From NCBI GenBank assembly GCA_963799265.1, contig CAWCWM010000016.1:66260-130259 (forward strand): 64,000 nucleotides of DNA, given 5' to 3'. Origin of the DNA: an uncultured cyanobacterium. GTDB lineage: Bacteria; Cyanobacteriota; Cyanobacteriia; Phormidesmidales; Phormidesmidaceae. Of the stretch, positions 34,111 through 56,893 are shown piece after piece (the stretch's first letter is position 1; every line of letters begins with the position of its first letter). The translations under genes and the position numbers were made by a program. Under the pieces are notes generated by a model, which was given only the letters and a program-made list of their open reading frames with translations, was not told the DNA's origin and ran no database searches.

Positions 34111-34118
34111 CTACCAGT

Positions 34119-35953: not shown

Positions 35954-36841
35954 TTGAGGTTTGGTGTGGAATATCTACGGTATGTTGGCTGGCAATCTAT
36001 CGCGGTTTTAGCCGCTGGTCTAGGAGCCTATCTGCTGGCCTGTATAGGGCTGTGGCGCTTTCAGACAAAGCTGATCTTTTTCCCGCCAGGGGTGGTTCAA
36101 AGTACGCCAGCCGATTTTGGCATGGCGTACGAAGATTTGAGATTAACTGCGGGAGACGGGCAGGTCCACGGCTGGTGGATTCCGGCTGAAAGTGATACGG
36201 CCAGTTCTCCAGTAATTGTCTATGCTCACGGCAACGGTAGCAATTTGAGCAATTTGGTCTCCAGGTTTCAGCAGTTTCACAATCTAGGCTTTACAGTATT
36301 GGCAATCGACTACCGGGGCTATGGGCAAAGCTCTGGGCCGTTTCCAAATGAGCAGCGGGTCTATGAGGATATAGAGGCGGCCTGGCAGTATTTGATTCAG
36401 CAGCAGGAGATCGCGGCGGACAGAATTGTGATTTATGGGCAGTCTATTGGGGGTGCGATCGCACTCAACCTAGCTGTCAACCATCCAGACGCGGCAGGAC
36501 TGGTTATGGAAAGCGCGTTCACTTCGATGCGTGACATGGTGGACTACAAATTTCCGCTGCTGCCCAAAATTACGCCGATAGATACCGTGCTGACTCAGCG
36601 GTTTGATTCTATGGGGAAGATGCGATCGCTTAAAATCCCCCTTCTACTCATCCACGGAACCGACGACGATATCGTTCCAGTTTCTATGAGTCAACAGCTG
36701 TATGGTGCGACGATAGCCAGTGGCAACGCAAACAGTACGCTGGCTTTGATTGAAGGGGGCGATCACAATAGCCTGCCGAGCTTTGGGGGCGATCGCTACA
36801 GCGAAACTGTTCAAACCTTCGTTCAAATGGCTACGGAATAA
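35954..36841 (+). CDS. Alpha/beta-fold hydrolase (ABHD13-like)
   Basis: YAHGNGSN, IDYRGYGQS, GQSIGG, IHGTDD, GGDHN. Confidence 0.9.
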   Translation: MRFGVEYLRYVGWQSIAVLAAGLGAYLLACIGLWRFQTKLIFFPPGVVQSTPADFGMAYEDLRLTAGDGQVHGWWIPAESDTASSPVIVYAHGNGSNLSNLVSRFQQFHNLGFTVLAIDYRGYGQSSGPFPNEQRVYEDIEAAWQYLIQQQEIAADRIVIYGQSIGGAIALNLAVNHPDAAGLVMESAFTSMRDMVDYKFPLLPKITPIDTVLTQRFDSMGKMRSLKIPLLLIHGTDDDIVPVSMSQQLYGATIASGNANSTLALIEGGDHNSLPSFGGDRYSETVQTFVQMATE

Positions 36842-38014: not shown

Positions 38015-39676
38015 ATGAAGAATCGCTTTAAATTTGATCTCCTATCTCAACATCAGCTATGGAATGGGATCGTTGTCATTCTGATTGCGCTCGGTGTGCT
38101 GTTTCGAGTGGCTGACCTCGATCGGCCTGTGTATTGGGTGGATGAGGTGGCGACTTCTATGCGGGTGTCTGGGTATACGCAGGCGGAGGTGGTGGAGCGG
38201 GTGGCGACTGAGTTGCCGCTGAGTGTGGCGGATTTGCAGCGGTTTCAAGTGATTAGGCCGGTTGAGGAAGGGTCTCCGGCAAATCGTCCGCTGGCGAATT
38301 TGATGCGGGTTTTGGCTCAAAGTCCAGAGCACGCGCCTTTGTATTTTGTGCTGGCGCACTTTTGGGCGGAGGTGTTTGGGGGGTCTGTGGTGGCGATGCG
38401 GAGTTTGCCGGTTTTGTTTGGGCTGTTGGGGATTCCGGCGATGTATGGCGCGGGGCTGACGCTGTTTAGTCAGGTGGAAGGTGGGCGGGCGATCGCACCC
38501 AATGTAGCAAGGACTGTAGCAAAGACGGCGGCGGGGCTGCTGGCGATCTCGCCTTTCTTTGTGGCCTATTCGCAGGAGGCGCGTCCGTATAGTCTGTGGA
38601 TTTTGCTGCTGCTGCTGACGACTCAGTTTTTGTGGCGATCGCTCCAAACGAACCAGCGGCGATGGTGGATAGCCTACGTCGCTTGCTTGATTCTGACGCT
38701 GTACACGTCTTTGCTGACCGTTTTGGTGGTGTTCGGTCAAGGGCTGGCGGTGCTGCTGTGGCATCGGCGGCGGCTGTCTGCCTATGTGATTGCGAGTGCG
38801 ATCGCGCTCTTCACCCTCCTACCCTGGGCCATCATCGTTTTCACCCAGTGGCAAAAACTGCAAAGCAATACGGTCTGGATGCAGATATACGCACCGATCT
38901 GGGCAACGCTGGGCACCTGGTTTTACAGTCTGGCGGTGCTGTTTTTTGATGTGCCAGTGGCAGAAGAGCCGCTAGTCTTTGGCTTGCAGGTGGTGACGGC
39001 GACGACGACAATCGCTCTAATTGGCTATGCGGTCTATGTCTTTGTGCGGCAAACGTCCCGTCAGCTTTGGGGGTTTGTGCTGGCGACGGCCTTTTCGATT
39101 CCTGGGATGCTGCTGCTAATTGATCTTTTGCGTAGCGGACAGGCGGCGGCGACGCCTCGCTACTTGATGCCGACTCATCTAGTGGTGCTGCTGGTAGTGG
39201 CTTATTTGCTGTGCGATCGCCTCTTTTTCCAATCCCATTTACCGACTCGGAAATGGCGAATAGTCACAGCCTTACTACTTAGCGTGAGCTTGATTTCTTG
39301 CCTAATTCCTCAACCGTCGCCCTATCTCAAAAGCAGAAATCTGAGCAATCCGGACCTGGCTAGGCTTTTGAATGAAGTGCGATCGCCTCAACTAGTCACC
39401 ACTCCTCACTCCATTCAAGACATAATTTCTTTGAGCTACGACTTAGAGCCCGATATTACGTTCTACGTTCTGCCCACCGAAACCGCTTCTCCTAACAACC
39501 TGCTAACAGATATCCTCAGTGAAGGAAAGGCTACTTTCCTATTCGCGCCATCAGACGAACAAAGACAGACGGTTGAAGCTAGTCAGCGCCTGAAGCTAAC
39601 TCAGATCTATCAGCCCCCGCCACTAATTTCAGGCGGGTTTGCATTGACGCTATGGAAGGTCGAGCAAGCAAGATAG
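38015..39676 (+). CDS. Glycosyltransferase family 39 (PMT/ArnT-like, GT-C)
   Basis: VYWVDEVATS, PEHAPLYFVL-HFW, SPFFVAYSQEARPYSL, PRYL; many TMs. Confidence 0.88.
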   Translation: MKNRFKFDLLSQHQLWNGIVVILIALGVLFRVADLDRPVYWVDEVATSMRVSGYTQAEVVERVATELPLSVADLQRFQVIRPVEEGSPANRPLANLMRVLAQSPEHAPLYFVLAHFWAEVFGGSVVAMRSLPVLFGLLGIPAMYGAGLTLFSQVEGGRAIAPNVARTVAKTAAGLLAISPFFVAYSQEARPYSLWILLLLLTTQFLWRSLQTNQRRWWIAYVACLILTLYTSLLTVLVVFGQGLAVLLWHRRRLSAYVIASAIALFTLLPWAIIVFTQWQKLQSNTVWMQIYAPIWATLGTWFYSLAVLFFDVPVAEEPLVFGLQVVTATTTIALIGYAVYVFVRQTSRQLWGFVLATAFSIPGMLLLIDLLRSGQAAATPRYLMPTHLVVLLVVAYLLCDRLFFQSHLPTRKWRIVTALLLSVSLISCLIPQPSPYLKSRNLSNPDLARLLNEVRSPQLVTTPHSIQDIISLSYDLEPDITFYVLPTETASPNNLLTDILSEGKATFLFAPSDEQRQTVEASQRLKLTQIYQPPPLISGGFALTLWKVEQAR

Positions 39677-40221: not shown

Positions 40222-41481
40222 ATGAAAATTGCCATTATTAGCTCTGGTTTTCTGCCCGTTGTCGATGGCGTGACTGTCTCGCTGTTTCAGCGGGTGCGGG
40301 CGCTGAGCAAGCTGGGGCATCAGGTTTTGATTTTGTGCCCAGACTATCAGGCGGTGGCGTCGGTGTATCCGGACTGGCGCGATTATCAGGGGGAGATTCT
40401 GCCGGGGGTGCGGGTGGTAAATCTGCCGAGTGAGCCGTTTATGGGGGTGGAGTTTGAGCGGAATTTGAGCGGGAAGGCGAACCGATTGCTAAATCAGGAG
40501 CTAGCTGCCTTTGAGCCAGAGATTGTGCATGTGGATGAGCCAGACAGGATATTTCTGGGTCTGCTAAAAGCGCCGGGGGTGGCCTATGCGAAGCAGCACA
40601 ACATTCCTTGTGTGGGCTTTTATCACACGAATTTTATTGACTATATCGAAGACTTTTTGCCGCTGCCTCGATTTCTGATTGCCTTTTTGCAGTGGTTTTC
40701 GATGCTGTTCATTCGGCCTGTGTTTCACGCGTATGACGCGATTCTCGTGTCTAGTCCGGTGACGCTGGAGAAGATGCAGCAGCTAAAGGTGAAAAATGTG
40801 GTGTGCGATCGCTTTCTAGGCGTAGACCTTCAGGCATTTCAATCACAGCACCGCGATCCTGATTTTTTCTCGCGGACGTACGGAATTGAAGGGCTGAAAG
40901 ACAAGACAAAGCTGGTGTTTTTAGGGCGACTGACGCCGGATAAGGGGTGGGGGTTTACGATGCGATCGCTCACCGACTGGGCTACCGATCCGAACAATGC
41001 GCACCTGGTAGACAAAGTTGCGATTATCATCGCGGGCGATGGAGAACTGCGCACTCAAATTCTAGAAAAGCTTCAGCCGCTAGCGATCGCAACCGGTTTT
41101 TCTATCCATTTGCTTGGACGTATCGCTCCAAACGCTGTGCCCGCACTGCTCACGAACTGCGACATTCACATCACAGCCTCTGAAAAAGAGACTTTGGGAC
41201 TGACCGTGCTAGAAGCGTTTGCAGCCGGTATTCCTGCGATCGCGCCAGCAAAAGGCGGTGTGACTACCCACATTCGCGACGGGAAAAATGGCCTCTTGTT
41301 TGAGCCGCAAGATAGCAGGAGCTTTGGTCAGGCTCTGACTAGACTGGTGTCAGACGTAGAGCTACAGCACCAGCTAGGACAGCAGGGGCAGCGGGATGTT
41401 GCTGATTATGACTGGGAAAACGTTGTGTCTACACTGCTGTCCACCTGGCAGAATCAGATTTCCTCACACTCTTTGTCTTGA
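40222..41481 (+). CDS. Glycosyltransferase family 4 (SqdX/PimA-like, cd03814-type)
   Basis: FLPVVDGVT, GFYHTNF, FLGRLTPDKG, ETLGLTVLEAFAAGIP. Confidence 0.9.
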   Translation: MKIAIISSGFLPVVDGVTVSLFQRVRALSKLGHQVLILCPDYQAVASVYPDWRDYQGEILPGVRVVNLPSEPFMGVEFERNLSGKANRLLNQELAAFEPEIVHVDEPDRIFLGLLKAPGVAYAKQHNIPCVGFYHTNFIDYIEDFLPLPRFLIAFLQWFSMLFIRPVFHAYDAILVSSPVTLEKMQQLKVKNVVCDRFLGVDLQAFQSQHRDPDFFSRTYGIEGLKDKTKLVFLGRLTPDKGWGFTMRSLTDWATDPNNAHLVDKVAIIIAGDGELRTQILEKLQPLAIATGFSIHLLGRIAPNAVPALLTNCDIHITASEKETLGLTVLEAFAAGIPAIAPAKGGVTTHIRDGKNGLLFEPQDSRSFGQALTRLVSDVELQHQLGQQGQRDVADYDWENVVSTLLSTWQNQISSHSLS

Positions 41482-41535
41482 CATTACCTATCTCTCAGCA
41501 TTACTACATAGAGAAGTTCGATATGTGTCACCCGC

Positions 41536-43349
41536 ATGAGTGCCTTTAGTCCCTCTGTTAGCTCCACCGTTTCGCTTGAATCTGTTGCAATTGTCGGTAT
41601 TGGCTGTCGCTATCCAGGCGGTGCGGACACGCCGGATGCCTTTTGGCAGATGATTCGTGAGGGTGTGGACAGTGTCACGGAGGTGCCGCGATCGCGCTGG
41701 GATGTAAACCCCATCTACGACCCAGATCCGCACGCGCCCAACAAAACCAACACTCGCTGGGGCGGCTTTCTAGACCAGATAGACCAGTTCGACCCGCAGT
41801 TTTTTGGGATGGCACCGCGTGAGGTGGCTACGATGGACCCGCAGCAGCGGCTGCTGTTGGAGGTGACCTGGGAGGCGCTAGAGGATGCAGGGCAAGTTCC
41901 GGAGGCTTTGCGCGGCTCTAGGACGGGTGTGTTCATTGGGATTGGCACGCACGACTATTCGATTATGCTGTGGCAGCAGCCGGTGAATGACCCGTACGCG
42001 ACGACGGGGACGGGGAACTGCATCGCGGCGAATCGAATCTCTTATTTGTTTGACTTTAAAGGGCCGAGTCTGGCGGTGGATACGGCCTGCTCTTCGTCTT
42101 TGGTGGCGATTCATCTGGCCTGTCAAAGTCTGTGGACGGGTGAGTCGGAGATGGCGATCGCAGGCGGTGTGAATGTGCTGCTGCTGCCGACGGTGACGGC
42201 GGGCTTTTCTAAGGGCGGCTTTATGTCTGGCGATGGCCGCTGCAAGAGCTTTGATGCGAGTGCGGATGGCTATGTGCGCAGTGAGGGGGCGGGCGTTGTG
42301 GTGCTAAAGCCGCTGTCGAAGGCTTTGGCCGATGGCGATCCGGTGTATGCGGTGATTCGCGGCAGTGCGGTGAATCAGGACGGCTTTAGTCAGGGGATGG
42401 CAGCGCCGAATCCAGAGGCGCAGACGGCGGTACTGCGAGAGGCGTATCGGCTGGCGCAAGTTGATCCGGCGACGGTTAATTATATAGAGGCGCACGGGAC
42501 GGGGACGAAGCTGGGCGATCCGATTGAGGCGCAGGCGCTAGGAGCGGTGCTGTCGGCGGGGCGCGGACTTGAGCAGGCTTGTCCGATTGGGTCGGTAAAG
42601 ACTAATTTTGGTCATACGGAGACGGCGGCGGGCGTGGCGGGCGTGATTAAGGCGGCGCTGATGCTAAAGCATGGGGAAATGCCGCCGAGTTTGCACTATT
42701 CGCAGCCGAATCCGGCGATTGATTTTGCTGAGCTGAGGCTGAAGGTGCAGTCGGCGATCGCACCTCTCCCCCCTAGTTCATACATCGGCGTCAACTCTTT
42801 TGGCTTTGGTGGCACGAATGCCCACACGGTGCTAGCTACTTTCAATGAACAGAACAAAGAGACAGTCGCAGTCCCTGATTCTGCCAGAATTCTAACTATC
42901 TCTGCGAAGAACAAGACGGCTCTAAAAGCGCTGGCACAGGGCTATCTAGACTTATTAGAGAATCAAACGATAGATTTAGGCGCTTTGTGCGTGGCGGCAA
43001 ATACGAGGCGATCGCACTTCTCGCATCGGCTCGCTTGTATCACTGAATCTGTTGATCAACTAAAAGAACAGTTGAGAGACTGGCTGGCGGAGGAAGAAGA
43101 CATTGTTGGGGTTGTCTCTGGCCAGTCGGTTAAGCGTCAGCAGTCTGAAGGAATTGCCTTTCTCTTTACCGGACAGGGCTCACAGTTTATTGGCATGGGC
43201 CGCGAGCTGTACGGGACGCAGCCAGTGTTTCGAGGCGTGCTAAAGCAATGTGCTGAAATCTTGGCTAGAGAAGAAATCGACTTATTAAAGATTCTCTTTG
43301 AGGCGGAAGCGGATGCGATCGACAAACTCAGTTTACTCAGTGTTTTGTT
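41536..43349 (+). pseudogene. First, truncated copy of the PKS (KS + start of AT)
   Basis: DTACSSSL, HGTGT, FLFTGQGSQ, then breaks at the duplication junction. Confidence 0.8.
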
Positions 43350-44590
43350 AGCTCTGGTTTTCTGCCGTTGTCGATGGCGTGACTGTCTCGCTGTTTCAGC
43401 GGGTGCGGGCGCTGAGCAAGCTGGGGCATCAGGTTTTGATTTTGTGCCAGACTATCAGGCGGTGGCGTCGGTGTATCCGGACTGGCGCGATTATCAGGGG
43501 GAGATTCTGCCGGGGGTGCGGGTGGTAAATCTGCCGAGTGAGCCGTTTATGGGGGTGGAGTTTGAGCGGAATTTGAGCGGGAAGGCGAACCGATTGCTAA
43601 ATCAGGAGCTAGCTGCCTTTGAGCCAGAGATTGTGCATGTGGATGAGCCAGACAGGATATTTCTGGGTCTGCTAAAAGCGCCGGGGGTGGCCTATGCGAA
43701 GCAGCACAACATTCCTTGTGTGGGCTTTTATCACACGAATTTTATTGACTATATCGAAGACTTTTTGCCGCTGCCTCGATTTCTGATTGCCTTTTTGCAG
43801 TGGTTTTCGATGCTGTTCATTCGGCCTGTGTTTCACGCGTATGATGCCATCCTCGTGTCTAGTCCGGTGACGCTGGAGAAGATGCAGCAGCTAAAGGTGA
43901 AAAATGTGGTGTGCGATCGCTTTCTAGGCGTAGACCTTCAGGCATTTCAATCACAGCACCGCGATCCTGATTTTTTCTCGCGGACGTACGGAATTGAAGG
44001 GCTGAAAGACAAGACAAAGCTGGTGTTTTTGGGGCGACTGACGCCGGATAAGGGGTGGGGGTTTACGATGCGATCGCTCACCGACTGGGCTACCGATCCG
44101 AACAATGCGCACCTGGTAGACAAAGTTGCGATTATCATCGCGGGCGATGGAGAACTGCGCACTCAAATTCTAGAAAAGCTTCAGCCGCTAGCGATCGCAA
44201 CCGGTTTTTCTATCCATTTGCTTGGACGTATCGCTCCAAACGCTGTGCCCGCACTGCTCACGAACTGCGACATTCACATCACAGCCTCTGAAAAAGAGAC
44301 TTTGGGACTGACCGTGCTAGAAGCGTTTGCAGCCGGTATTCCTGCGATCGCGCCAGCAAAAGGCGGTGTGACTACCCACATTCGCGACGGGAAAAATGGC
44401 CTCTTGTTTGAGCCGCAAGATAGCAGGAGCTTTGGTCAGGCTTCTGACTAGACTGGTGTCAGACGTAGAGCTACAGCACCAGCTAGGACAGCAGGGGCAG
44501 CGGGATGTTGCTGATTATGACTGGGAAAACGTTGTGTCTACACTGCTGTCCACCTGGCAGAATCAGATTTCCTCACACTCTTTGTCTTGA
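43348..44590 (+). pseudogene. Second copy of the GT4 gene, 5'-truncated and frameshifted
   Basis: Lacks the first codons; C-run deletions near 43367 and 43449; extra T near 44443. Confidence 0.8.
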
Positions 44591-44644
44591 CATTACCTAT
44601 CTCTCAGCATTACTACATAGAGAAGTTCGATATGTGTCACCCGC

Positions 44645-47600
44645 ATGAGTGCCTTTAGTCCCTCTGTTAGCTCCACCGTTTCGCTTGAATCTGTTGCAAT
44701 TGTCGGTATTGGCTGTCGCTATCCAGGCGGTGCGGACACGCCGGATGCCTTTTGGCAGATGATTCGTGAGCGGTGTGGACAGTGTCACGGAGGTGCCGCG
44801 ATCGCGCTGGGATGTAAACCCCATCTACGATCCAGATCCGCACGCGCCCAACAAAACCAACACTCGCTGGGGCGGCTTTCTAGACCAGGTAGACCAGTTC
44901 GACCCGCAGTTTTTTGGGATGGCACCGCGTGAGGTGGCTACGATGGACCCGCAGCAGCGGCTGCTGTTGGAGGTGACCTGGGAAGCGCTAGAGGATGCAG
45001 GGCAAGTTCCAGAGACTTGGCGCGGCTCTAGGACGGGTGTGTTCATTGGGATTGGCACGCACGACTATTCGATTATGCTGTGGCAGCAGCCGGTGAATGA
45101 CCCGTACGCGACGACGGGGACGGGGAACTGCATCGCGGCGAATCGAATCTCTTATTTGTTTGACTTTAAAGGGCCGAGTCTGGCGGTGGATACGGCCTGC
45201 TCTTCGTCTTTGGTGGCGATTCATCTGGCCTGTCAGAGTCTGTGGACGGGTGAGTCGGAGATGGCGATCGCAGGCGGTGTGAATGTGCTGCTGCTGCCGA
45301 CGGTGACGGCGGGCTTTTCTAAGGGCGGCTTTATGTCTGGCGATGGCCGCTGCAAGAGCTTTGATGCGAGTGCGGATGGCTATGTGCGCAGTGAGGGGGC
45401 GGGCGTTGTGGTGCTAAAGCCGCTGTCGAAGGCTTTGGCCGATGGCGATCCGGTGTATGCGGTGATTCGCGGCAGTGCGGTGAATCAGGACGGCTTTAGT
45501 CAGGGGATGGCAGCGCCGAATCCAGAGGCGCAGACGGCGGTACTGCAAGAGGCGTATCGGCTGGCGCAAGTCGATCCGGCGGCGGTTAATTATATAGAGG
45601 CGCACGGGACGGGGACGAAGCTGGGCGATCCGATTGAGGCGCAGGCGCTAGGAGCGGTGCTGTCGGCGGGGCGCGGACTTGAGCAGGCTTGTCCGATTGG
45701 GTCGGTAAAGACTAATTTTGGTCATACGGAGACGGCGGCGGGCGTGGCGGGCGTGATTAAGGCGGCGCTGATGCTAAAGCATGAGGAAATGCCGCCGAGT
45801 TTGCACTATTCGCAGCCGAATCCGGCGATTGATTTTGCTGAGCTGAGGCTGAAGGTGCAGTCGGCGATCGCACCTCTTCCCCCTAGTTCATACATCGGCG
45901 TCAACTCCTTTGGCTTTGGTGGCACGAATGCCCACACGGTGCTAGCTACTTTCAATGAACAGAACAAAGAGACAGTTGCAGTCCCTGATTCTGCCAGAAT
46001 TCTAACTATCTCTGCGAAGAACAAGACGGCTCTAAAAGCGCTGGCACAGGGCTATCTAGACTTGTTAGAGAATCAAATAGATCTAGGCGCTTTATGCGTG
46101 GCGGCCAATACGAGGCGATCGCACTTCTCGCATCGGCTCGCTTGTATCACTGAATCTGTTGATCAACTAAAAGAACAGTTGAGAGACTGGCTGGCGGAGG
46201 AAGAAGACATTGTTGGGGTTGTCTCTGGCCAGTCGGTTAAGCGTCAGCAGTCTGAAGGAATTGCCTTTCTCTTTACCGGACAGGGCTCACAGTTTATTGG
46301 CATGGGCCGCGAGCTGTACGAGACGCAGCCAGTGTTTCGAGGCGTGCTAAAGCAATGTGCTGAAATCTTGGCTAGAGAAGAAATCGACTTATTAAAGATT
46401 CTCTTTGAGGCGGAAGCGGATGCAATCGATCAAACCCAGTTTACTCAGCCCGTTTTGTTCTCGTTTGAATATGCGCTGGCTAAGCTATGGCAATCTTGGG
46501 GAATTGAGCCTGCTGTGGTGCTAGGTCATAGTCTGGGTGAATATGTGGCTGCTTGCGTGGCAGGTGTGTTTAGCCCGGAAGATGGGCTGAAGCTGGTTAC
46601 GGCGAGAGGGCGGCTGATGCAGGCGTTGCCAGCAGGTGGCGCGATGCTGTCGGTGATGGCGGATGTGTCGCGGTGTGAGCGGCTGATTGCTGGGCAGGCG
46701 GCTGAGATTGCGGCGGTGAATGGGCCACAGAGTACGGTGCTGTCGGGGGATGCAGATGCGATCGCCCACCTCGCTCACCAGCTAGAACAACAGTCGATCA
46801 AATCGAAGCCGCTGGTAGTTTCTCATGCGTTTCACTCTGCGCGGATGGAGCCGATGCTGAATGACTTTCGAGCGGTAGCAGAGTCTGTTGCTTTTCGGCT
46901 GCCGACGCTGCCGATTATCTCTATGCTGACTGGGGAACTGGCCACCGCAGAGATGGCGACGGCTGACTATTGGGTGCAGCATGTGCGATCGCCTGTCCAA
47001 TTCTTTGACGCGATCAAGGCGCTTTACCAACAGGGTGAGAAGACTTTCTTAGAGATTGGATCGAAGCCAATTCTATTAGGCATGGGTCGAGGCTGCTTGC
47101 CGAACGTGGAAGACGTGCAGTGGCTAGCTAGTTTGCGTCCTAGTCTGTCAGATAAAATCGCCATTCTCAACACTTTAGCCGCGCTCTATGTTCAGGGAGA
47201 GAAGATTAGCTGGCACTCAGTAGAGCCAGAAATCAACATTAAAGGACTGCGCGTTTCGCTACCCACCTATCCCTTCCAAAGACAGCGCTACTGGTGGGAT
47301 GAGGCCAGTATTCCTAGCATGGAGCCCAAAAAGGCGCAGGCTTCGGCTCTAGAAAGAGCAACAGAGTCATCCATTACTGGGCAACTATCTACCGCTGGCT
47401 GGCTCTAAAGAGAAACATTTTCAAAGTCGGATCAGCGCTCATCCTGACTATTTGAGAGACCATTGCATTCTAGGACAGGTGGTTTTGCCGGGGGCGGCTT
47501 ATGTAGAGATGGCGATCGCTGCCGCTCAGCAGTGGCAAGACTCGATCGAACTTACCTTAAAAGAAGTAACAATCGAAAAGGCACTTACTTTTCCAACAGA

Positions 47601-50600
47601 GCACAAAGAGACCACGCTACAGATAGCATTAGTTCCAGACGGCCCGGCACAGGCGACTATTCAAATATTTAGCTTATTGTCTACGGCTGACGAAACTGCT
47701 ACGAGACATGCTAGAGCGACAGTTGTTCTTGGGAGAGCAGCAGGTGAAACAGCGACTGGCGAGAAACCTCTGCTCGCTAGCTATCAGACTGAGCTGCTGG
47801 CCTATCCTGTTGCGATCGCACCCTACTACCAAACCCTTAGCAACCAAGGCTTACATTACGGCCCCAGCTTCCAAGTCATCCAGCAGCTGTGGCAGAAACC
47901 AGGACAAGCCCTCAGCCAAATCCGGTTAGCAGAAGACAGTCTAGTCGATAAATCCTACGCCCTCCATCCCGCTCTACTAGATGGCTGCTTCCAAACCATC
48001 GGTGCTGCCGTCCAAGCAAACTCGGAAGGCACCTACCTACCCGTAGGTCTAGATCAGCTCGAGTTCTACAGTCCTTTACAGCAGTCCGGCTGGTGCGCTG
48101 TCAAGCTGCAACAGAGTAAATCGAACCAGAATGGCTCGATGTCGAAAACGCTCAAGGCCGATCTGTTCATCTGGGACGAGGTTGGAACGCTCGCCGCACA
48201 AATCACCGGCATGACGCTCAAGTACGTCAGAAATTCTACTCTACAGCGGCTTTTTGGGATTTCAAAGAATCAGCCGCTCGTCCGTCAGCCAGAGGTTGTT
48301 CAAACCAATTCGCATGGATGGCTACATGAACTCGTTTGGCAGACCGTCCCAAATACTCAATCCAGTTCGCCACCAAAACAAAGCTCGAAACAAAAGCCAA
48401 AGGTCTGGCTGCTTTTCTCGGATAAACAGGGTTCAAATAGCCAAGGCATCAGCGAGCAGCTTACAATAGAACTAGAGAAGCGAGGCGATCGCGTTCTCAA
48501 GATTGCGATCGCCAACAGCTATGCACCTGATCCCGATAGCAACACCTACGCCCTCGATCCAACAGATCCGGACTCATTCAACCAGCTTTTTACCGATCTC
48601 ATTCCCATTCTCGTCGCCGAGAACCAGGGCGAGCTAGCCTGCCAAATTGTCTATCTATGGGCATTAGACGCCAAAGAACAAACTACAGAAGCGCTTGCAG
48701 AACAAAAAAGAACCTGCGGTAGTCTGCTGCATCTCACACAGACTCTGATCCAGTTTCCCGCTTTGCGCGCGCGTTTATGGCTCTTGACTCAAAACGCACA
48801 ATTCATCGATACCCCGACGCCGCTCAATCTTCAGCAGTCGCCGCTGTGGGGACTAGCGCGCACCCTACGCCTAGAGCAGCCTGACTTGGGCTGCACATCT
48901 ATCGATTTGTCGAACTCGTTTACCACCAAGGAAATAGAGCTGCTGCTACAGGACTTCTGCCACCCCGACGCAGAAGAACAGATCGCCTACCGTCAAGATA
49001 ATCGCTTTGTCGCCAGACTCCTACCGCAGGACAAAGCACCCCAACCGCTGACAAAACCAGAAAGCTCCGCCTTTCGCCTCGGCCTTTCTAGCTATGGCGT
49101 CTTGGACGATCTCGCTTTGTTCCCTGTAGAAAGACAGACGCCCAATGCTGGGGAAATTGAGATTCAGGTGAAAGCGTCGGGCCTGAACTTTCGCGATGTG
49201 TTGAATGCGCTAGGAATGCTTCAAGACGTTTTAGAAGAGATGGGCTTTTCAGCGCCGACTGAGGTGCCCTTTGGCGGTGAGTGCGCTGGGGTGGTGACGG
49301 CGATTGGAACAGGCGTAGAGAACATCAAGGTAGGCGACGAAGTGATTGCGGCTCAGGCGGTGGGCAGCTTGCGACAGTTTGTTACTGTACCCGCAGACTT
49401 TGTTGTGGCTAAGCCGGTTTCGATGAGCTTTGCGGCAGCGGCGACGGTGCCGACGGCATTCTTGACGGCCTATTATGGCTTGGTGCACTGTGCGGGACTG
49501 AAGGCGGGCGATCGCATCCTCATCCATTCAGCCGCTGGCGGCGTCGGTCAGGCCGCTGTACAAATCGCTCAGTCTATCGGCGCTGAAGTTTTTGCCACCG
49601 CTAGCCCACCGAAATGGGATTTTTTGCAGTCGATGGGCATTCAACAGGTGATGAACTCGCGCACGCTTGATTTTGCTGAGGAAATTCTGGCAATCACCAA
49701 CGGAAAAGGCGTTGACGTTGTCTTCAACAGCCTTAATGGAGAATTCATCGACAAAAGCGTTGAAGTTTTAGCGCCGCAGGGTCGGTTTGTTGAAATTGGC
49801 AAGATCGGCATCTGGAATGCTGAAAAGATGAGTCAGGTCCGAGCTGACGTTGGTTACTTTCCTTTTGATCTGTTGGAAGTATCGACCGAACAGCCACAGC
49901 TAATTGCTCAGCTTTTGAGCGATCTGATGGCGCAGTTCGAGGCGCAGCAGTTGCGACCCTTGCCCAAGACTGTTTTTCCGATAGAATCTGCCCCTGACGC
50001 CTTTCGATACATGGCCCAGGCAAGGCACATCGGCAAAGTGGTGCTGACTTTGAGCGCGATCGCACCCCACCAACCCCTGATCAACCCGAGGCCGCTTATC
50101 TCGTAACCGGTGGACTAGGCGCATTAGGCTTAAAAGTAGCTCAGTGGCTAGCTGAACAAGGCGCGGAGCATTTGATTTTGTTGGGACGGCAATCGCCCAC
50201 CGCAGCCGCCCAGACAGCTATCGAAAAACTCCAACAGTCCGGCACGGTTGTTCAACTTGTACAGGCCGATATCGCTAATCAGTCTGATCTCAAATCCGCG
50301 CTATCGCCTTATCTCTCAGCGGATGCTAGTTTGCCACTCAAAGGCGTTTTTCATTTAGCAGGCACCTTGGAAGACGGCCTGCTGATCAATCAATCCTGGC
50401 AAAACTTTGCCAAAGTCATGAGCCCGAAGCTGACAGGCGCTTGGAATCTGCATGTGCTAACGCAGTCTTTAGACCTCGATCACTTCGTTTGTTTCTCTTC
50501 TATTGTTTCTCTGATGGGTTCACTGGGCCAAAGCAACTACGCCGCCGCCAACACGTTTCTAGACAGCCTTGCCCACCATCGTCAGAGCCTGGGCCTGCCT

Positions 50601-52540
50601 GCTCTTAGCCTAAACTGGGGACCGTGGGCGGATGCTGGCATGGTCGCCAAGCTAGACGAGCGCAGCCAAAATCGAATGGCAGACCAGGGGCTGACGCAAA
50701 TCTCGCCCGAAGTCGGACTACAGATGATGGCTGGCGCGATGACGCAATCTAGGCCACAGGTTGGCATCGTGCCGATTGACTGGGGCAAATTCATGGCATC
50801 TGCGGGTGGACAGGCCAGCGGCGCAAGCTCACCTTTGCTCTCTGCGCTCAAACCAGCGGCGGCTGAACCCACTGCCCGTAAGCATTCAGACGTATTGCAA
50901 CAGCTAGCGAGAAGTGAAGCAGGCGATCGCACCAGATGCTTGCTGCCTACTTACAATTACAGCTTGCCAAAGTGATGGGCTTTAGCTCACCCGAGGTCAT
51001 TAATCCCAACGAACAGTTTGGCGATCTGGGCATGGATTCTCTAATGGCTGTGGAGTTTAGTAATCGTCTGCAAAAGAATCTGAACTATCCCATTCCTCAG
51101 ACGTTGGCGTTTGACTATCCTACGTTAATGCTCTGGCAGTATATTTGCAGAGAAGATTTCGCCTGAGCTAGCATCTGTTGTTCAAAAGGAAACGTTAGCT
51201 CCTGAAGAAGAACCCGTGAGTTTATCTATGCCTGCTGAGCAAAGAGAGATTGCTAAAGAGAGCGACCATAACGGCAGTGGCAACGGTCAACGGCTAGTTT
51301 TTCAGGATTTGCCTACGTACGATCCACCTGCTGAGCACTACAAATTCTCTCAGATGCCTGACTATCGCCGCCTGCGTCAGGATCTCGATCGGGTAGAAGA
51401 TTTGGGCAATCCTTTCTTTGTTGTGCATGAGGGGACGGCGAAAGATACGACGCGAATTGACGGGCGATCGCTCATCAACTATGCCAGCTACAACTATCTA
51501 GGACTCTCCGGCGATCCAAGGCTGAACAAGGCGGCGCACAGCGGGCGATCGCACAATATGGCACCTCAGTCTCCGCTAGCCGTGTCGTCTCGGGTGAACG
51601 CCCCGTCCATCAACAGCTAGAGCAAGGACTAGCCAACTTCCTCGGCACCGAAGACTGCATCACCTACATCGGTGGCCATGCTACCAACGTCACCACCATC
51701 GGCCACCTCTTTCAGGAGAAAGACCTGATTTTGTACGACGCACTCAGTCACAACAGCATCCGCGAAGGCTGCAACCTCGCCGGGGCAACGGCGATGGAGT
51801 TTCCTCATAATGACTGGCAGGCTTTATCAAGATTGTTGCAGCAGCACCGACGCAACTACGAGAAAGTATTAATTGCTATCGAAGGCGTGTACAGCACCGA
51901 TGGCGACCTAGCGCCGCTGACCGAGTTCGTAAGGCTAAAGCAAGAATATAAAACCTTTCTCCTAGTAGACGAAGCGCATTCTATCGGCGTGTTGGGTAAA
52001 ACTGGGCGCGGCGTCGGTGAACATTTTGGCGTGGATTCTCAAGCCGTAGATATGTGGATGGGCACGCTGAGCAAATCTTTTGCCAGCTGCGGCGGATACA
52101 TCGCGGGCTGCTCGGAACTGGTGGAATATCTAAAGTACACCGCGCCGGGATTTGTGTTTAGCGTGGGGATGGCTCCGGCGAATGCAGCGGCGGCGCTGGA
52201 GGCCCTGCGGATCATGCAGCAGGAACCGGACCTGATTGCGCAGGTGCAACAAAAGTCGAAACTCTTCTTAACGCTGGCTCAAGAGCAAGGATTGAATACC
52301 GGAAATAGTCATGATTCGCCGGTGATTCCGGTGATTGTAGGCGAGCCGTACAAGGCGGTGCAGCTGTCGCACACGCTGTTTCAGCAGGGGATTAATGTAC
52401 AGCCCATGGTGTATCCGTCAGTGCCGTACGATGCGGCGAGGCTAAGGTTCTTCCTCAGCTCTTTGCATACGGAAGCGCAGATTCGGCAGACGGTGAAAGT
52501 GGTGGCGGATGAGCTGAGGGTGTTGAATGCGATCGCGTAA
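44645..52540 (+). CDS. Type I PKS KS-AT-DH-ER-KR-ACP fused to a C-terminal PLP-dependent alpha-oxoamine synthase (AONS/SPT family); at least 7 apparent frameshifts
   Basis: KS DTACSSSL/HGTGT/GH; AT GHSLG and HAFH; DH DHCILGQVVLP; ER IHSAAGGVG; KR VTGGLGALG and QSNYAAAN; ACP GMDSL; AOS YASYNYLGL, DALSHNS, EGVYSTDGD, DEAHS, GTLSK; protein-like sense resumes across each break after a 1-2-nt shift. Confidence 0.85.
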
Positions 52541-52558
52541 CCGTCAGATGTCGACTGG

Positions 52559-52732
52559 TAGCGTGAGTTGCGGACCCACCCCGCCCTGCGGGCACCCCTC
52601 CGAGGAGGGGATTTACTTCAGGCGATGACAGTTGGGGGATCTACCTCGACCCTCAAACATCACATAGCCGGAACAAATCCCCTCCTCGGAGGGGTGGCAC
52701 GCAGTGACGGGGTGGGTCCGCAACCTATGCTA
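52559..52732. mobile_element. Non-autonomous long inverted-repeat element (MITE/REP-like)
   Basis: ~48-50-bp arms gttgcggacccacccc...gaggaggggattt / aaatcccctcctc...ggggtgggtccgcaac around a 60-bp core. Confidence 0.65.
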
Positions 52733-52807
52733 TAGCCAATATCTCATAGCTGTCTCATAGCTGTATATACGCCACAGACGACAGCAAAAGCCTAGCGATA
52801 AGAACAA

Positions 52808-52837
52808 CAAAAAAGGAGATGACAATTGCCATCTCCT
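52808..52837 (-). terminator. Intrinsic terminator of the 52880-53245 gene
   Basis: aggagatg/catctcct stem followed by a T-run on the minus strand. Confidence 0.7.
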
Positions 52838-52879
52838 GTAATCTCCCTGCACAGAAGAAAATTTGGTGCTGTTAGCGCA

Positions 52880-53245
52880 TCACACGGGCGTTGATTCCGT
52901 GGCGGACTGAGCTTTTGGCCGCCGTCGCTCGCTCTGACGGGTACCGCCGACCATTTCGTATTCGCTGCTGTCTTTGCCGTACTTGAGCTTGACGGCGAGC
53001 AGGACGTTTTCGGCAGCTACAGACAGCTCTTTTTCTAGACTTTGGACATTGTTGGCAGCATCGTCTACTTTCGAGAGCAGTGTGTTGTAGGCTTCGACCT
53101 TCTGACGAAATTCGGTGATTTCTTTCTCGTAGGCGGCGACGGTCAGGCCGTTGCCCAGGTCGACTTTGGGATCAATAGATTTGAGGCCAGCGAGTCGCTT
53201 TTGGGCTTTGTTCAAAGTTGCAGATTGTTTCTTGCGTCTTGCCAT
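52880..53245 (-). CDS. Small coiled-coil hypothetical protein (MARRKK...LGNGLT...YGKDSSEYEMVGG family)
   Basis: Likely ATG 53245; amphipathic helices; I recall the family from cyanobacterial genomes; function unknown. Confidence 0.75.
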   Translation of the reverse strand: MARRKKQSATLNKAQKRLAGLKSIDPKVDLGNGLTVAAYEKEITEFRQKVEAYNTLLSKVDDAANNVQSLEKELSVAAENVLLAVKLKYGKDSSEYEMVGGTRQSERRRPKAQSATESTPV

Positions 53246-53495
53246 AATGCGCCTTTTGGATAGATGGATAGAAGTTGAACGGGATGTGGAATAGCGATCG
53301 CTGTTTTTATTGCGAGCAGTTGAACAGGGGGGTTCGTTGTCTGAAGCTGATGACAGCGATCGCGCTTTCACTGACATAAAGGTGCCCGATTGCTGTGACA
53401 AAAAGAACAGTGTTTTCTAAGGGCGATTACAGATAATTTTGATATCTAGAGAAATATTTTGGAGAATTGACCGTGTGATTACGGAATGGAGAAGA

Positions 53496-53894
53496 GTATT
53501 TGTGACTTTATGAGAAGTGGATCGGCGATCGCAAAAACTGGATCGGCGATCGCAAAAAGTGGATCGGCGATCGCAAAAAGTGAGTCGCTGATTGTCAGAA
53601 GTCGATCGGCGATCGCGAGGAGCAGATCGCCAGTTGCAAGCAGTGAGACGAGAAGCGCGAGAAGTGGAGCGAGGTTTGAAAGGAGTGGAGGCGCGATCGC
53701 GAGCAGCAGAACGAGGGCTGGCAATATCGCAGCTTCGAGTGAGAGAAGTGCCACGAAGACCAGCAATAGCCGCACGAAAGTGGTGAGAAGCGTCACGAGT
53801 GTAGGGAGAAGCGCTACAAAGATGGGGAATAGCGTAGGGGTGGCTGTTATCAGCGCAATGAAGGGCGTGAGATGTAGTGGCTCGAATGAATGCA
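53496..53894. repeat. Degenerate 21-nt periodic array (~19 units)
   Basis: gtggatcggcgatcgcaaaaa x3 grading into diverged units; three reading frames stay open across it. Confidence 0.8.
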
Positions 53895-54029
53895 TAGCTG
53901 AACGACCCTCGGCCCGCAGTATGCAAGGGTAATGATGACAGCCAGCGCAGTGAGACAAGGTGCCAAAGGTATAGAATCACAGCGAGGAGAAAAGCAGCAA
54001 AGGCTAAAGACAGAAGCACTTGGATAGGA

Positions 54030-54243
54030 ATTTTCTCTATCCAACGGATGCAATTAAGGCAGGAGAGCGGTCATGGCAGAACTAAAGATCTACCATGACA
54101 AAGTAGGGAATACATTGACGGTTTGGTTTGGCGCTCCGGCGATAGGGCTGTGCCTGTGAAGAAATCCAAACGAAGTAATTCTGACGAGTAAGCGAGCTGG
54201 ACAGGGAGGGCTAGGCTTTGGCAAGCTGAACTATGTTTTGTGA
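54030..54243 (+). pseudogene. Remnant toxin 3' end plus degraded DUF2283-type antitoxin
   Basis: YPTDAIKAGERSWQN* overlapping MAELKIYHDKVGNTLTVWFG... CEE..EVIL ...GFGKLNY in shifted frames. Confidence 0.6.
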
Positions 54244-55091
54244 GAGCAGCAATCTTCTACTAGCGCTGATCGCATCCAAACGCTTCGGTGATCGTAGTAG
54301 CGAATGAGGCGCGATCGCATCCCATCTTGCCTTAACCAGCCCACCTCTATCCGAAACTCAGCAGCTTGTGCGATCGCGCCAGGCACTAGACAATAAGTTC
54401 CATTAGGCAAGGTCATTAGCTTGTAGTCCAACTCTCCTTTCAAGCGCACAACGTTGCCAGCGCTGCCGCCATCGGACCCATTCTGTTCTTTCGTCAACGA
54501 CAGTTTTTCAGCAGTTTCTCCAAACGTATCTTGACAGCAAAGCGAGGCGCGATCAAAACGCCACTCGCTAGCGCCCGTCGTCATCGGCTCCATCGTGGCA
54601 TGAAGTACCGACAAGGTGCCCGTCCATTCACCCGTCATCTGGTCAAGCGTCATCGCTGGTTCGAGAAAGTGAGCGCCCTCTGTTTGAGTTTCTCGAATCA
54701 GCACGACATACTTTAGCTGAGCGCTGCCATCAACGCCGCTCTCGTACATGATCACAAAACGCGCCCGGCGATCGCCCACCGTCAAACACATCTCCGCGCC
54801 AAATTGCGCAAAGGCCGTCCACTGCGCCGACCCCTGCGTAAACGCACCGCTCTCGAAAAAGTATACGTAGGGTGCCGGTCCAGGCGCAGAAAAAGATCGC
54901 GTAGTGACCTCTGTTGTCTCACCAGGAGGCGTTCGCTTCAGCGTCAGCTGCATGGTTTTATCCGGCTCAGTTTCTTGCAACGTCAAGACGCTAGGCGTAT
55001 CTTTGACCGGTTCCCCCTCAGCAGAAAACCGGGTAAAAGAGCCATACCAGGTACCGAGATTCTGTTGAATACATCGCCATTGAGTAAGCAT
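54231..55091 (-). CDS. DUF3598 family protein
   Basis: QWRCIQQNLGTWYGSFTRFS, FFESGAFTQGS, RSRLIRYYD. Confidence 0.85.
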   Translation of the reverse strand: MLTQWRCIQQNLGTWYGSFTRFSAEGEPVKDTPSVLTLQETEPDKTMQLTLKRTPPGETTEVTTRSFSAPGPAPYVYFFESGAFTQGSAQWTAFAQFGAEMCLTVGDRRARFVIMYESGVDGSAQLKYVVLIRETQTEGAHFLEPAMTLDQMTGEWTGTLSVLHATMEPMTTGASEWRFDRASLCCQDTFGETAEKLSLTKEQNGSDGGSAGNVVRLKGELDYKLMTLPNGTYCLVPGAIAQAAEFRIEVGWLRQDGMRSRLIRYYDHRSVWMRSALVEDCCSHKT

Positions 55092-55106
55092 TAAAAACGA
55101 TAGCTT

Positions 55107-55769
55107 CTATGTGGTTACGGTTGACTGTGAATCTGTTGACTTTAGCGGCGGTCGAATAGACAGATAGAACGTGATTCCGAGCAGCGGAACTAGCGCAGCC
55201 ATCCAAAAGAGTGCCGGACTATCGAGATCGCGCTTGGCCATGTCGTCTTTTAGCAAAGGAGAGACAATAGCACACAGCATACAAAAGTCTAGGCTCATGA
55301 CGTGAATAAACCGGCTGGTTTGCCACTGCTGGGCAAAGTCGTTCCAGTCGCCGCTGGTCAGCCCGTAGATGAGCAGGACGAGACTAGCTAGTGCGATCGC
55401 CCGCCCGGTCCAAACAGCATCAACTAGCTTGAGCAAAAGCGTCTTTGGCGCGTCAAACGTTGGACTAGACTCACGCAGTGCCAGATAAGGCAGCAGCGCA
55501 AAGGCACCGACCCCAAAGCTAGCCACTACAAACGGCCAGGCTGCGATCTTTTGCGTTGCACCGTCAATCAGCGCCAAGCAAGCGTAGATCATAGGCCAAA
55601 CTCCCATGAGATTGAATAAAGCAATGACAGCAGGATTAAGACCATCCCACTGCCCAGACGAAAGCCGGACAATCAGATCAAAGGTATCTGGCCGCTGCGG
55701 AGGGGCCAGCGTAAAGGCGTAGAGGCTAAACCCAAGCCACAGCAAAGCAAAGATAAGTCTTCTAGTCAT
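55107..55769 (-). CDS. DUF2834-type membrane protein
   Basis: ALFNLMGVWP, SFGVGAFALLPYLALR, SRFIHVMSLDF. Confidence 0.8.
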   Translation of the reverse strand: MTRRLIFALLWLGFSLYAFTLAPPQRPDTFDLIVRLSSGQWDGLNPAVIALFNLMGVWPMIYACLALIDGATQKIAAWPFVVASFGVGAFALLPYLALRESSPTFDAPKTLLLKLVDAVWTGRAIALASLVLLIYGLTSGDWNDFAQQWQTSRFIHVMSLDFCMLCAIVSPLLKDDMAKRDLDSPALFWMAALVPLLGITFYLSIRPPLKSTDSQSTVTT

Positions 55770-56036
55770 AGTGATGGCTGTAGCTCGACAGCCTTTGGAT
55801 AGATTTGCAAAAAGGGTTTCTAATAGATCAGTTAAAGATTCAAAGGTATTTTTTAAGTTTTAAATGGCTATGTAAACATGCAGATGCACAAGACCTAATT
55901 AGCACGGCTGAAGATTATCTTAAGAATACAACCAAGTCTTGACGGGCTGTCGAAAAAGACCGTCCAGTGACCTAGTTTGCTAATGCCCGGATTAGAAATG
56001 CTTGAAGCACAGTGGCGAACACTTAATAGATAGCCT

Positions 56037-56867: not shown

Positions 56868-56893
56868 GTCTTTGCTGTAGTTGAGTCGTCAAA

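Follow-up and report, generated by a model that had tools for sequence, protein, structure and literature searches.

The question raised by this locus is whether seven disconnected coding pieces on a cyanobacterial contig belong to one enzyme, and what that enzyme would make. The window, by which the whole analysed stretch of 64,000 nt is meant, comes from an uncultured member of the Phormidesmidaceae, and all coordinates are positions in it. Its region 44645-52540 (plus strand) is split into seven open reading frame (ORF) pieces that match domains of a polyketide synthase (PKS) of type I and of an α-oxoamine synthase (AOS). On balance, we consider it likely that the locus encodes a megasynthase combining a fully reducing PKS with an AOS that depends on pyridoxal 5'-phosphate (PLP) and is of the serine palmitoyltransferase (SPT) type, and that the breaks in its frame and an adjoining tandem duplication are products of assembly. 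By analogy with characterized enzymes, the product is probably a sphingoid-type lipid base for a glycolipid.

A polyketide synthase fused to an α-oxoamine synthase

In Pfam searches, the seven pieces correspond, in order, to the start of KS, KS-AT, DH-ER, KR, ACP, a piece without assignment, and Aminotran_1_2. Three-frame translation showed that the frame moves at ~44771, ~47367, ~50083, ~50936, ~51122, ~51147, and ~51533. The read-through protein was obtained from 44645-52540 (+) by seven edits: positions 44771 and 47367 were deleted, one nucleotide was added after each of 50082, 50936, 51122, and 51147, and two nucleotides were deleted at 51533 (in all, a single base was added at four sites and removed at two, and a pair of bases was removed at one). 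The edited gene is one ORF of 7,896 nt encoding 2,631 aa, with its sole stop codon at the end. Pfam found the domain order KS-AT-DH-ψKR-ER-KR-ACP-AOS, where ψKR is the structural KR subdomain, at residues 15-388 (KS), 541-833 (AT), 908-1200 (DH), 1280-1433 (ψKR), 1501-1800 (ER), 1816-1996 (KR), 2106-2167 (ACP), and 2277-2618 (AOS). The domain E-values ranged from 1e-13 to 1e-100, and the matches are therefore beyond chance. Neither a thioesterase nor a loading domain was found by Pfam in the read-through protein.

All catalytic motifs were located by motif search. The KS and AT domains contain DTACSSS, EAHGTGT, NFGHTE, GHSLGE, and HAFHS, and the HAFH motif marks a malonyl-type AT. The DH, ER, KR, and ACP domains contain HCILGQVVLP, DGCFQ, HSAAGGVGQ, TGGLGALG, SNYAAAN, and GMDSL, while LSHNS, DEAHS, and TLSKS provide the PLP-stacking His, the Asp-x-x-His, and the Schiff-base Lys of the AOS. 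The domain order on one polypeptide and the motifs are those of a type I fully reducing (highly reducing, HR) PKS module, the frame of which is interrupted in the window by the seven breaks. The C-terminal domain belongs to the AOS family (PLP fold type I; BioF/KBL/ALAS/SPT) by its Aminotran_1_2 match (3e-47) and its motifs. What the joined gene encodes is a type I PKS of one fully reducing module to which an AOS is covalently attached. A sequence-only reading of the window had proposed this fusion earlier; its joining of seven pieces at these break positions, the intactness of every catalytic motif it listed, and the absence of a thioesterase or loading domain were all borne out.

A genome scan with one genome per species and an ACP-AOS alignment as the query yielded more than 595 relatives. 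The best 80 of these were almost all cyanobacterial, and the top match was 78% identical. Confirmed frameshifts together with the lack of an intact homologue in relatives had been named by the sequence-only reading as grounds for abandoning the proposal; instead, at least 21 cyanobacterial loci contain one stop-free ORF of 2,490-2,770 aa, which is colinear with read-through residues ~1-2630 and shares the domain order of the window. The closest uninterrupted ORFs are 65-66% identical to the read-through protein, and those of loci L005-L009 are 59-66% identical. Carriers of intact ORFs include Xenococcus PCC 7305, Chlorogloea CCALA 695, several complete Waterburya genomes, and metagenome-assembled genomes (MAGs) of Limnospira and Baaleninema. 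Plasmid p3 of Planktothrix agardhii NIVA-CYA126/8 encodes a 2,532-aa protein (WP_042158693.1) annotated as 'type I polyketide synthase', which is colinear over the whole length at 49% identity. Most of these intact ORFs have GT4 (family 4 glycosyltransferase), GT39-like, and α/β-hydrolase genes as neighbours. At 505 otherwise invariant columns, the read-through protein differs at 6, and the intact homologues differ at 1-34. The intact homologues show that the PKS-AOS fusion is real, old, and widespread.

A second and larger family, of stand-alone ACP-AOS proteins (~545 aa), was found to be very widespread as well, with members in Trichodesmium erythraeum IMS101 (L056), Moorena bouillonii (L042), and loci L045, L062, and L069; carriers include Okeania, Pleurocapsa, and Hyella. 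These proteins are 50-54% identical to the window protein over the ACP-AOS part and, unlike it, carry no PKS domains in the same protein. Their neighbours are ORFs of ~590-630 aa, a short-chain dehydrogenase/reductase (SDR), and an LpxO-like hydroxylase, and some loci contain an ORF of ~530 aa and a family 4 glycosyltransferase (GT4). This layout recalls the ACP / acyl-ACP-synthetase / Spt order of proteobacterial sphingolipid genes. No characterized product of the stand-alone cyanobacterial family was found in the literature.

The α-oxoamine synthase domain and its predicted product

Sequence matches to a structure database placed the AOS domain closest to the Sphingobacterium SPT (3a2b/8guh) and the Thermus 8-amino-7-oxononanoate synthase (AONS)/KBL (2.5e-68). 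Human SPTLC2 and plant SPT large subunits followed, then KBL (1e-59 to 1e-55), BioF (6.5e-50), and ALAS, cysteate acyltransferase, CqsA, and the fungal SphA (9pep, 7e-27); 54 AOS structures matched at E <1e-20. The domain scored below every NCBIfam equivalog cut-off, namely those of KBL, BioF (TIGR00858, 368.4 versus 426.45), and the three SPT models NF047600 (320.5 versus 640), NF047599 (298.5 versus 500), and NF047603 (216.1 versus 670). Because all these cut-offs were missed, the domain represents a distinct AOS subfamily and not housekeeping BioF. By analogy, it would be SPT-like in action, yet it lies outside the curated SPT families. Its conserved C-terminal 'ARLR' motif, which is common to BioF and KBL enzymes, does not discriminate between amino acid substrates.

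A characterized precedent exists in Pseudomonas fluorescens MYb115, in which the iterative monomodular PKS PfSgaA and the AOS PfSgaB (KW062_RS19800) lead to C24-C28 sphinganines and phosphoglycerol sphingolipids (PMC12134224). Purified PfSgaB condensed acyl-CoA with L-serine and had almost no activity with Ala or Gly, and the SDR SgaC is probably the ketone reductase in this strain (PMC12134224). In both systems, a monomodular fully reducing PKS without a thioesterase passes its acyl chain to an SPT-like AOS. PfSgaA and PfSgaB are two proteins, whereas the window encodes one polypeptide with an ACP-AOS linker of ~60 aa, and no KDSR-like SDR comparable to SgaC was found among the scanned window ORFs. 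By this analogy, the window protein would be a covalently fused cyanobacterial counterpart of Pseudomonas SgaA/SgaB, and a sphingoid-type aminoketone would be a product with a characterized precedent.

A total of 6,101 homologous two-gene clusters have been reported, mainly in Burkholderia (Peters et al. 2025, Nat Commun, PMC12134224), and cyanobacterial genera were not found in the accessible part of the supplement text on them (PMC12134224). This is expected, because a two-gene search cannot retrieve fusions. The view that the architecture lacks precedent is superseded by PfSgaAB (PMC12134224), and the novelty left lies in the fusion and the cyanobacterial glycosyltransferase context. No characterized cyanobacterial PKS-AOS fusion or product was found in the literature.

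Outside the cyanobacteria, the closest relatives of the AOS domain are stand-alone AOS genes on plasmids of Pseudomonas, Caballeronia, and Paraburkholderia. The plasmid-borne AOS of Pseudomonas sp. TMW 2.1634 is 53.5% identical to that of the window (426 bits) and is located 10 nt downstream of a PKS of 2,497 aa with the order KS-AT-DH-ER-KR-ACP, and an SDR gene follows a few genes later. The PKS parts are only 32-35% identical, and between DH and ER the Pseudomonas protein is longer by ~400 residues. The Pseudomonas cluster has an SDR, whereas none was found among the scanned window ORFs; the neighbours in the window are GT4, GT39-like, and α/β-hydrolase genes.

In the proposed mechanism, the PKS would iterate with malonyl-CoA, or extend a fatty-acyl starter with it, so that a long and saturated acyl chain forms on the ACP of the same protein. 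Acting in cis, the AOS would follow by performing a decarboxylative Claisen condensation of an amino acid with the ACP thioester, and a long-chain 2-amino-3-ketone, an analogue of 3-ketosphinganine, would be released without a thioesterase. The ketone would then be reduced by an enzyme for which no candidate was found among the scanned ORFs of the window cluster. The 'one-enzyme route' of the sequence-only reading is thus retained up to the aminoketone and does not extend beyond it, since a 3-keto reductase is not evident in the window cluster.

By analogy, L-serine is slightly favoured as the amino acid substrate. It is doubtful that the AOS instead takes alanine, glycine, aminomalonate, or another amino acid to form a 1-deoxy- or different aminoketone lipid. 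Such a substrate would fit the scores below every curated SPT equivalog (320 versus 640, 298 versus 500, and 216 versus 670) and the equal closeness to the Thermus AONS/KBL-type enzyme. In addition, the related clusters L001 and L005-L009 have a LeuB-like β-hydroxyacid dehydrogenase in place of a KDSR-type SDR, which hints at other head-group chemistry, and aminomalonate has been discussed for AOS enzymes of the fungal SphA/MyrA type (PMC13612406). On the other hand, the domain is 53.5% identical to the PKS-partnered Pseudomonas AOS, PfSgaB strongly prefers L-Ser over Ala and Gly, and several of the top solved relatives are SPTs.

A non-iterative PKS, which would add one C2 unit to a fatty acyl group supplied by fatty-acid synthesis or a fatty acyl-AMP ligase (FAAL) before release by the AOS, seems unlikely to about the same degree. 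The missing loading domain speaks for it, as do the FAAL in the Planktothrix cluster and a multimodular FAAL-PKS of Chroococcus that ends in KR-ACP-AOS; the ORFs of ~590-630 aa beside the stand-alone ACP-AOS genes are candidates for such ligases. However, no FAAL was found among the scanned ORFs of the window cluster, and PfSgaA, which has the same domain set, was described as iterative (PMC12134224). That the AOS is the housekeeping BioF, making 8-amino-7-oxononanoate for biotin, is extremely improbable: TIGR00858 is its top NCBIfam match by score (368 bits) and several homologues are named '8-amino-7-oxononanoate synthase' at JGI, but the score falls short of 426, the equivalog cut-off. Moreover, the domain follows a fully reducing PKS and its ACP in one polypeptide, its neighbours are glycosyltransferases and not bio genes, E. 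coli BioF matches less well in the structural database than the SPTs do, and the top solved relatives are SPTs and the Thermus AONS/KBL.

Fungal Fum1/Fum8, SphB/SphA, and MyrB/MyrA combine a highly reducing iterative PKS with an AOS that releases an amino-lipid, and in SxtA, the starter enzyme of cyanobacterial saxitoxin synthesis, and in fusions of the RedL/PigH/TamD type an AOS is located in cis behind a carrier protein and performs release by decarboxylative condensation. Release of an amino-lipid by PKS and AOS has been described for the fungal pathways to sphingolipid-like toxins (PMC13612406), and TamD has been described as an ACP-AOS fusion with decarboxylative thioester release (PMC4698589). 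The fungal enzymes of fumonisin, sphingofungin, and myriocin synthesis are separate and eukaryotic, and SphA (9pep) matched the window AOS at 7e-27 versus 2.5e-68 for bacterial SPT. By description, SxtA and RedL/PigH/TamD handle short acyl or pyrrolyl units, their module before the AOS lacks DH, ER, and KR, and they yield precursors of toxins or pigments and not long saturated chains. The canonical bacterial SPTs of Sphingomonas, Sphingobacterium, Bacteroides, and Caulobacter have the same fold and the same catalytic His, Asp, and Lys as the window AOS; unlike it, they stand alone and receive the acyl group from acyl-CoA or from a small ACP of their own.

Frame breaks and the tandem duplication

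The breaks were compared with related strains in sediment and macroalgal metagenome runs found through a sequencing-run index. This index returned related metagenomes only, and exact-protein look-ups with three ORFs of the window gave no match. Of the flank words 0.87 were shared by these runs, and of the PKS words 0.60. Related metagenome contigs, among them X1 and X3, were aligned to the window; these relatives are 95-99% identical. At all seven PKS sites the frame was restored by every metagenome contig covering the site, and at five of the seven this was seen in two samples or two distinct alleles. Natural allele pairs were found at 51122/51124, at 51146/51147, and at 51533 versus 51539+51542, and both members of each pair restore the frame. 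The extra base at 44442, in the second GT4 copy, is also absent from the relatives, and the frame is restored there too. All ten frame-breaking indels lie within 43345-52540, from the duplication junction to the PKS stop, and none is present in copy A of the duplication. The flanks 20001-40000 and 52500-64000 (31 kb), covered ~15-fold by the same runs, contained no frame-breaking indels in supported genes, while ~24 would be expected at the rate of the broken segment. The only flank indels were intergenic, in repeats, upstream of likely starts, or formed one compensating pair; this pair is located in a small toxin-antitoxin insert, where the window matches a third genome.

The substitutions show a pattern that differs from that of the indels. 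Between the window and X1, the PKS shows 22 synonymous and 11 non-synonymous changes, with 22/33 at codon position 3 (P = 9e-5), and in a 166-nt AOS stretch that is 5-7% divergent the window differs from two alleles by synonymous:non-synonymous ratios of 7:3 and 10:3. At least two alleles of the locus were present inside one sample, with mostly synonymous changes. In nature, the gene itself is unbroken and subject to purifying selection.

The duplication consists of 40235-43349 repeated head to tail at 43345-46459 with 98.8% identity (blastn, global alignment), the copies differing at 27 substituted positions and by 7 gaps, which together span 10 positions. The repeated unit runs from GT4 codon 5 through the spacer and KS to AT residue ~603. 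Upstream, copy A contains a frame-intact KS with the first ~60 aa of AT (41536-43344), and at the junction AT residue ~603 is joined to a second GT4 copy without a start. The resulting chimeric ORF has the Pfam domains ketoacyl-synt (15-388), Acyl_transf_1 (542-603), Glyco_transf_4 (655-790), and Glycos_transf_1 (824-967). The ORF at 44645, which the sequence-only reading took for the 5' piece, does belong to the PKS-AOS gene; overlooked was that this start lies in copy B of a 3.1-kb tandem duplication. In the syntenic loci L085 and L086, the duplicated unit is present in a single copy. The final ~10 nt of copy A before the junction contain extra mismatches and a 2-nt gap, as would be expected of a contig end. 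Copies A and B differ by 17 synonymous and 8 non-synonymous changes, with 16/25 at codon position 3 (P = 0.0016), and since these differences are mostly synonymous, the copies look like two strain alleles joined in tandem. X1 has the copy-A base at ~7 of the variable sites and the copy-B base at ~8; its joints 41861->43007 and 43028->46442 were disregarded, being anchored by 22 nt only. The A/B and window/X1 substitutions appear to be alleles filtered by selection, because they are synonymous-biased, unlike random errors or the neutral decay of a truncated fused duplicate.

Similar breakage was seen in other long contigs. In L001, L085, and L086, all from one ENA metagenome assembly, PKS-AOS is split into two to four called genes at differing positions: the L085/L086 frame breaks fall at aa ~987-1001 and 2386, and those of L001 at 577, 724, and 1920. 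In L007 and L009, which are other bins of the same sample, PKS-AOS is intact. Since the positions differ, long-contig metagenome assemblies seem to break this 8-kb gene sporadically.

We regard the seven breaks and the duplication as likely assembly artefacts at a strain-variable locus. Two haplotype paths with a 3.1-kb overlap would have been left unmerged by the assembler, creating the tandem duplication, and the consensus would be poorer, and hence carry the indels, along the path that continues rightward from the join as far as the high-copy palindromic repeat (52559-52732). A genuine recent pseudogene, with a real tandem duplication and seven real indels in a cluster that is functional in sister strains, is rather improbable. 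It would account for disruptions at this locus only, with flanks clean against the same relatives, for radical substitutions at invariant columns such as L125W in copy B (L in copy A), and for the degradation of the adjoining VapC toxin, and the strain-variable locus is perhaps dispensable. Against it, the changes between the copies and from the relatives are synonymous-biased, while a truncated fused in-situ duplicate should diverge neutrally; the absence of indels in copy A and the ten to the right of the junction fit two sources of unequal quality better; none of the seven indels was seen in any relative; and the same gene is broken at other places in other long-contig MAG assemblies. Mixtures of artefact and pseudogene take the remaining probability.

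Several observations weigh against the preferred reading of a functional megasynthase broken in assembly. A real and recent inactivation would likewise leave indels in a single gene of a 64-kb window that is clean elsewhere. Three or four changes at invariant columns are radical, e.g., L125W, L644P, and R2530L; L125W is the copy-B state, copy A retains the invariant Leu, and such few radical substitutions are compatible with either an artefact or a pseudogene. Logan contigs stop short of 43345, and a 111-nt junction query, of which only 6 words were sampled, gave no runs. Concerning the function, the window lacks the LeuB-like and PagL-like genes that the more distant relatives L001 and L005-L009 carry, and neither an SDR/KDSR-type reductase nor an N-acyltransferase was found among the scanned ORFs of the window cluster. 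Finally, the plasmid pair of TMW 2.1634 is SgaAB-like by architecture only and was set beside MYb115 by description.

Other explanations were considered and rejected. Uniformly noisy long-read sequence was ruled out by the flanks, which are free of frame-breaking indels in supported genes. Programmed frameshifting was ruled out, as the seven sites are of mixed sign, none is conserved in relatives, and intact single ORFs occur elsewhere; an old pseudogene was ruled out by the synonymous-biased substitutions. Basecalling errors at methylation motifs are suggested by 4 of the 10 indels lying within 27 nt of HIP1 sites, but this signal is too weak to use. The missing LeuB-like and PagL-like genes were dropped as a sign of decay, since the syntenic L086 also lacks them, which indicates a lineage difference.

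The HIP1 octamer GCGATCGC occurs 109 times in the window versus 1.9 expected, which marks the host as a cyanobacterium, as do the close homologues of the protein, all of them cyanobacterial. Because its density is equal inside and outside the PKS, the gene is native to the cyanobacterial genome and not a recent import. Among co-occurring strains, the locus diverges by 1.4-3%, locally 5-7%, versus ~0.3-0.6% in the flanks (31 kb). In this respect, the PKS-AOS/GT4 locus (43345-52540) is a diversity island, resembling surface-polysaccharide/antigen loci.

Unless reads confirm them, neither the seven frameshifts nor the chimeric KS-AT'-GT4 ORF should enter annotations as biological features. Annotation from such metagenome assemblies will routinely under-report the PKS-AOS fusion.

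Gene neighbourhood and a possible role in the cell envelope

The features of the window are listed in Table 1. The α/β-hydrolase gene has an equally placed orthologue in L007 and L009 (55% identity), the L009 orthologue of the GT39/PMT_2-like gene, likewise found at the corresponding place, shows 61% identity, and GT4 is 65% identical to its L009 orthologue. GT4 is a conserved neighbour of PKS-AOS in 12 loci and aligns full-length, weakly, to the lipid glycosyltransferase model MGlcDAG synthase. The gene order in L007 and L009 is α/β-hydrolase, PMT_2/GT39-like, GT4, PKS-AOS, LeuB-like Iso_dh, and PagL-like β-barrel, and L001 additionally contains MAPEG, an MsbA-like ABC exporter, and GtrA. L085 and L086 (~86% nucleotide identity) have the order PMT_2, VapB, PIN, GT4, and PKS-AOS, and further on they encode a BFA1-like protein, a pentapeptide protein, a GAF kinase, and DHODH. 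Of the L007/L009 series, the window and L086 have in common the four genes from the α/β-hydrolase to PKS-AOS, and both are without the Iso_dh and PagL-like genes. In Planktothrix, PKS-AOS is flanked by a FAAL, two 'glycosyltransferase family 39' genes, an α/β-hydrolase, and a glycosyltransferase.

Table 1. Positions of the PKS-AOS gene, its domains and frame breaks, the duplication, and neighbouring features in the 64,000-nt window
Feature	Position	Strand	Description
α/β-hydrolase gene	35954..36841	+	Pfam Hydrolase_4/Abhydrolase_1; conserved upstream cluster member
GT39/PMT_2-like (GT-C fold) membrane glycosyltransferase	38015..39676	+	Pfam PMT_2
GT4 glycosyltransferase	40222..41481	+	Pfam Glyco_transf_4 + Glycos_transf_1; intact copy, in duplication copy A
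Duplication copy A	40235..43349	.	GT4 minus first 13 nt, spacer, KS, first ~60 aa of AT; unbroken frames
Chimeric 971-aa ORF	41536..44451	+	KS + AT start fused to GT4 fragment at junction
Duplication copy B	43345..46459	.	4 frame-breaking indels versus copy A: 43365, 43447, 44442, 44771
PKS-AOS gene	44645..52540	+	2,631 aa after read-through; 7 ORF pieces in assembly
KS domain	44687..45809	+	Cys182, His318, His357 motifs intact
Frame break 1	44771	+	Extra C; not in copy A, not in relatives
AT domain	46266..47144	+	GHSLGE; HAFH, malonyl-type signature
Frame break 2	47367	+	Extra T; not in X1 or X3 contigs
DH domain	47368..48246	+	HxxxGxxxxP, DxxxQ
Structural (ψ) KR subdomain	48484..48945	+	Pfam Beta-ketacyl_N 1280-1433
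ER domain	49147..50046	+	HSAAGGVGQ nucleotide-binding motif
Frame break 3	50082..50083	+	One A lost (AAA in a relative), right behind a GATC
Catalytic KR domain	50091..50633	+	TGGLGALG; catalytic Tyr in SNYAAAN
Frame break 4	50936..50937	+	One base lost, 6 nt past HIP1 site
ACP	50960..51144	+	GMDSL phosphopantetheine site
Frame breaks 5 and 6	51122..51147	+	One base lost at each of two spots 25 nt apart, ACP C-terminus
α-Oxoamine synthase domain	51315..52537	+	LSHNS His, DEAHS, TLSKS Schiff-base Lys
Frame break 7	51533..51542	+	Two surplus bases; both natural alleles net -2
Palindromic repeat, like a miniature inverted-repeat transposable element (MITE)	52559..52732	.	Inverted self-match; ~170 nt, arms GTTGCGGACCCACCCCG...CGGGGTGGGTCCGCAAC; right behind PKS stop

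Inserted between the GT39-like and GT4 genes (39718-40185) are a VapB-like antitoxin of 74 aa, 96% identical to the L086 copy, and a degraded PIN/VapC toxin remnant of 243 nt that contains a stop; the intact L086 gene has 399 nt and encodes 132 aa. This insert is polymorphic: the GT39-like and GT4 genes abut or overlap in L007 and L009, and one X1 contig joins 39666 to the GT4 start. The 1.2 kb between the α/β-hydrolase and GT39-like genes (36841-38015), which lie ~25 nt apart or overlap in L007/L009, contain no ORF of at least 120 aa and are poorly covered by relatives; within them, at 37433-37617, there is a 93-nt tandem duplication that is missing from one X1 contig.

The palindromic repeat bounds the indel-rich segment on the right and has a partial copy at 10839-10896. 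Its word depth in the metagenomes is 100-300 versus ~15 for unique sequence, with many different loose ends at 52567-52724 and a variety of flanking sequences, and it is a high-copy dispersed repeat. Further downstream, about seven 21-nt tandem repeats, each with the HIP1 core (GGATCGGCGATCGCAAAAAGT), were found at 53494-53703 in overlapping ORFs without a family match; relatives show a 42-nt copy-number difference there (joint 53514->53557). Within 63200-64000, an array of ~63-nt tandem repeats at 63383-63595 has a metagenome depth of 56-80 versus 12-17, and its minus-strand translation contains the recurring 'SATEQVPLVTE*FPDGAE'. The cation-efflux gene at 62786-63208 (-) is cut after ~140 aa, covering positions 2-107 of the 198 in the Pfam profile, and does not continue in any other frame; this truncation is shared by relatives, as the X1 contig is colinear there.

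The conserved neighbours of PKS-AOS suggest that the base is reduced, glycosylated, and located in the envelope. GT4 would glycosylate the lipid on the cytoplasmic side, because it resembles lipid glycosyltransferases, the GT39-like GT-C enzyme would glycosylate on the periplasmic side, and the final product would be placed in the cell envelope. The PagL-like, MsbA-like, LpxO-like, and GtrA genes in related clusters likewise point to outer-membrane lipid biology. As a tentative and somewhat doubtful generalization, many cyanobacteria may use a fused PKS-SPT to make sphingoid bases, which are glycosylated by the GT4 and GT39-like enzymes and reside in the outer membrane, the locus forming a surface-antigen-like island.

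To our knowledge, cyanobacteria are not known to make sphingolipids. PKS-derived bacterial sphingolipids were first shown in 2025, in Pseudomonas and with two separate enzymes (PMC12134224). Here, a fused form of this logic is kept as one protein of ~2,600 aa across many cyanobacterial orders, with glycosyltransferases of the lipid type next to it. Should the product prove to be a glycosylated sphingoid base, biomarkers that rely on long-chain bases in the environment would have to be reinterpreted, and biocatalysis would gain a self-contained enzyme that leads from an acyl chain to an aminoketone. Cyanobacteria would then gain a lipid class not attributed to them, a previously unrecognized glycosphingolipid-like lipid of the envelope.

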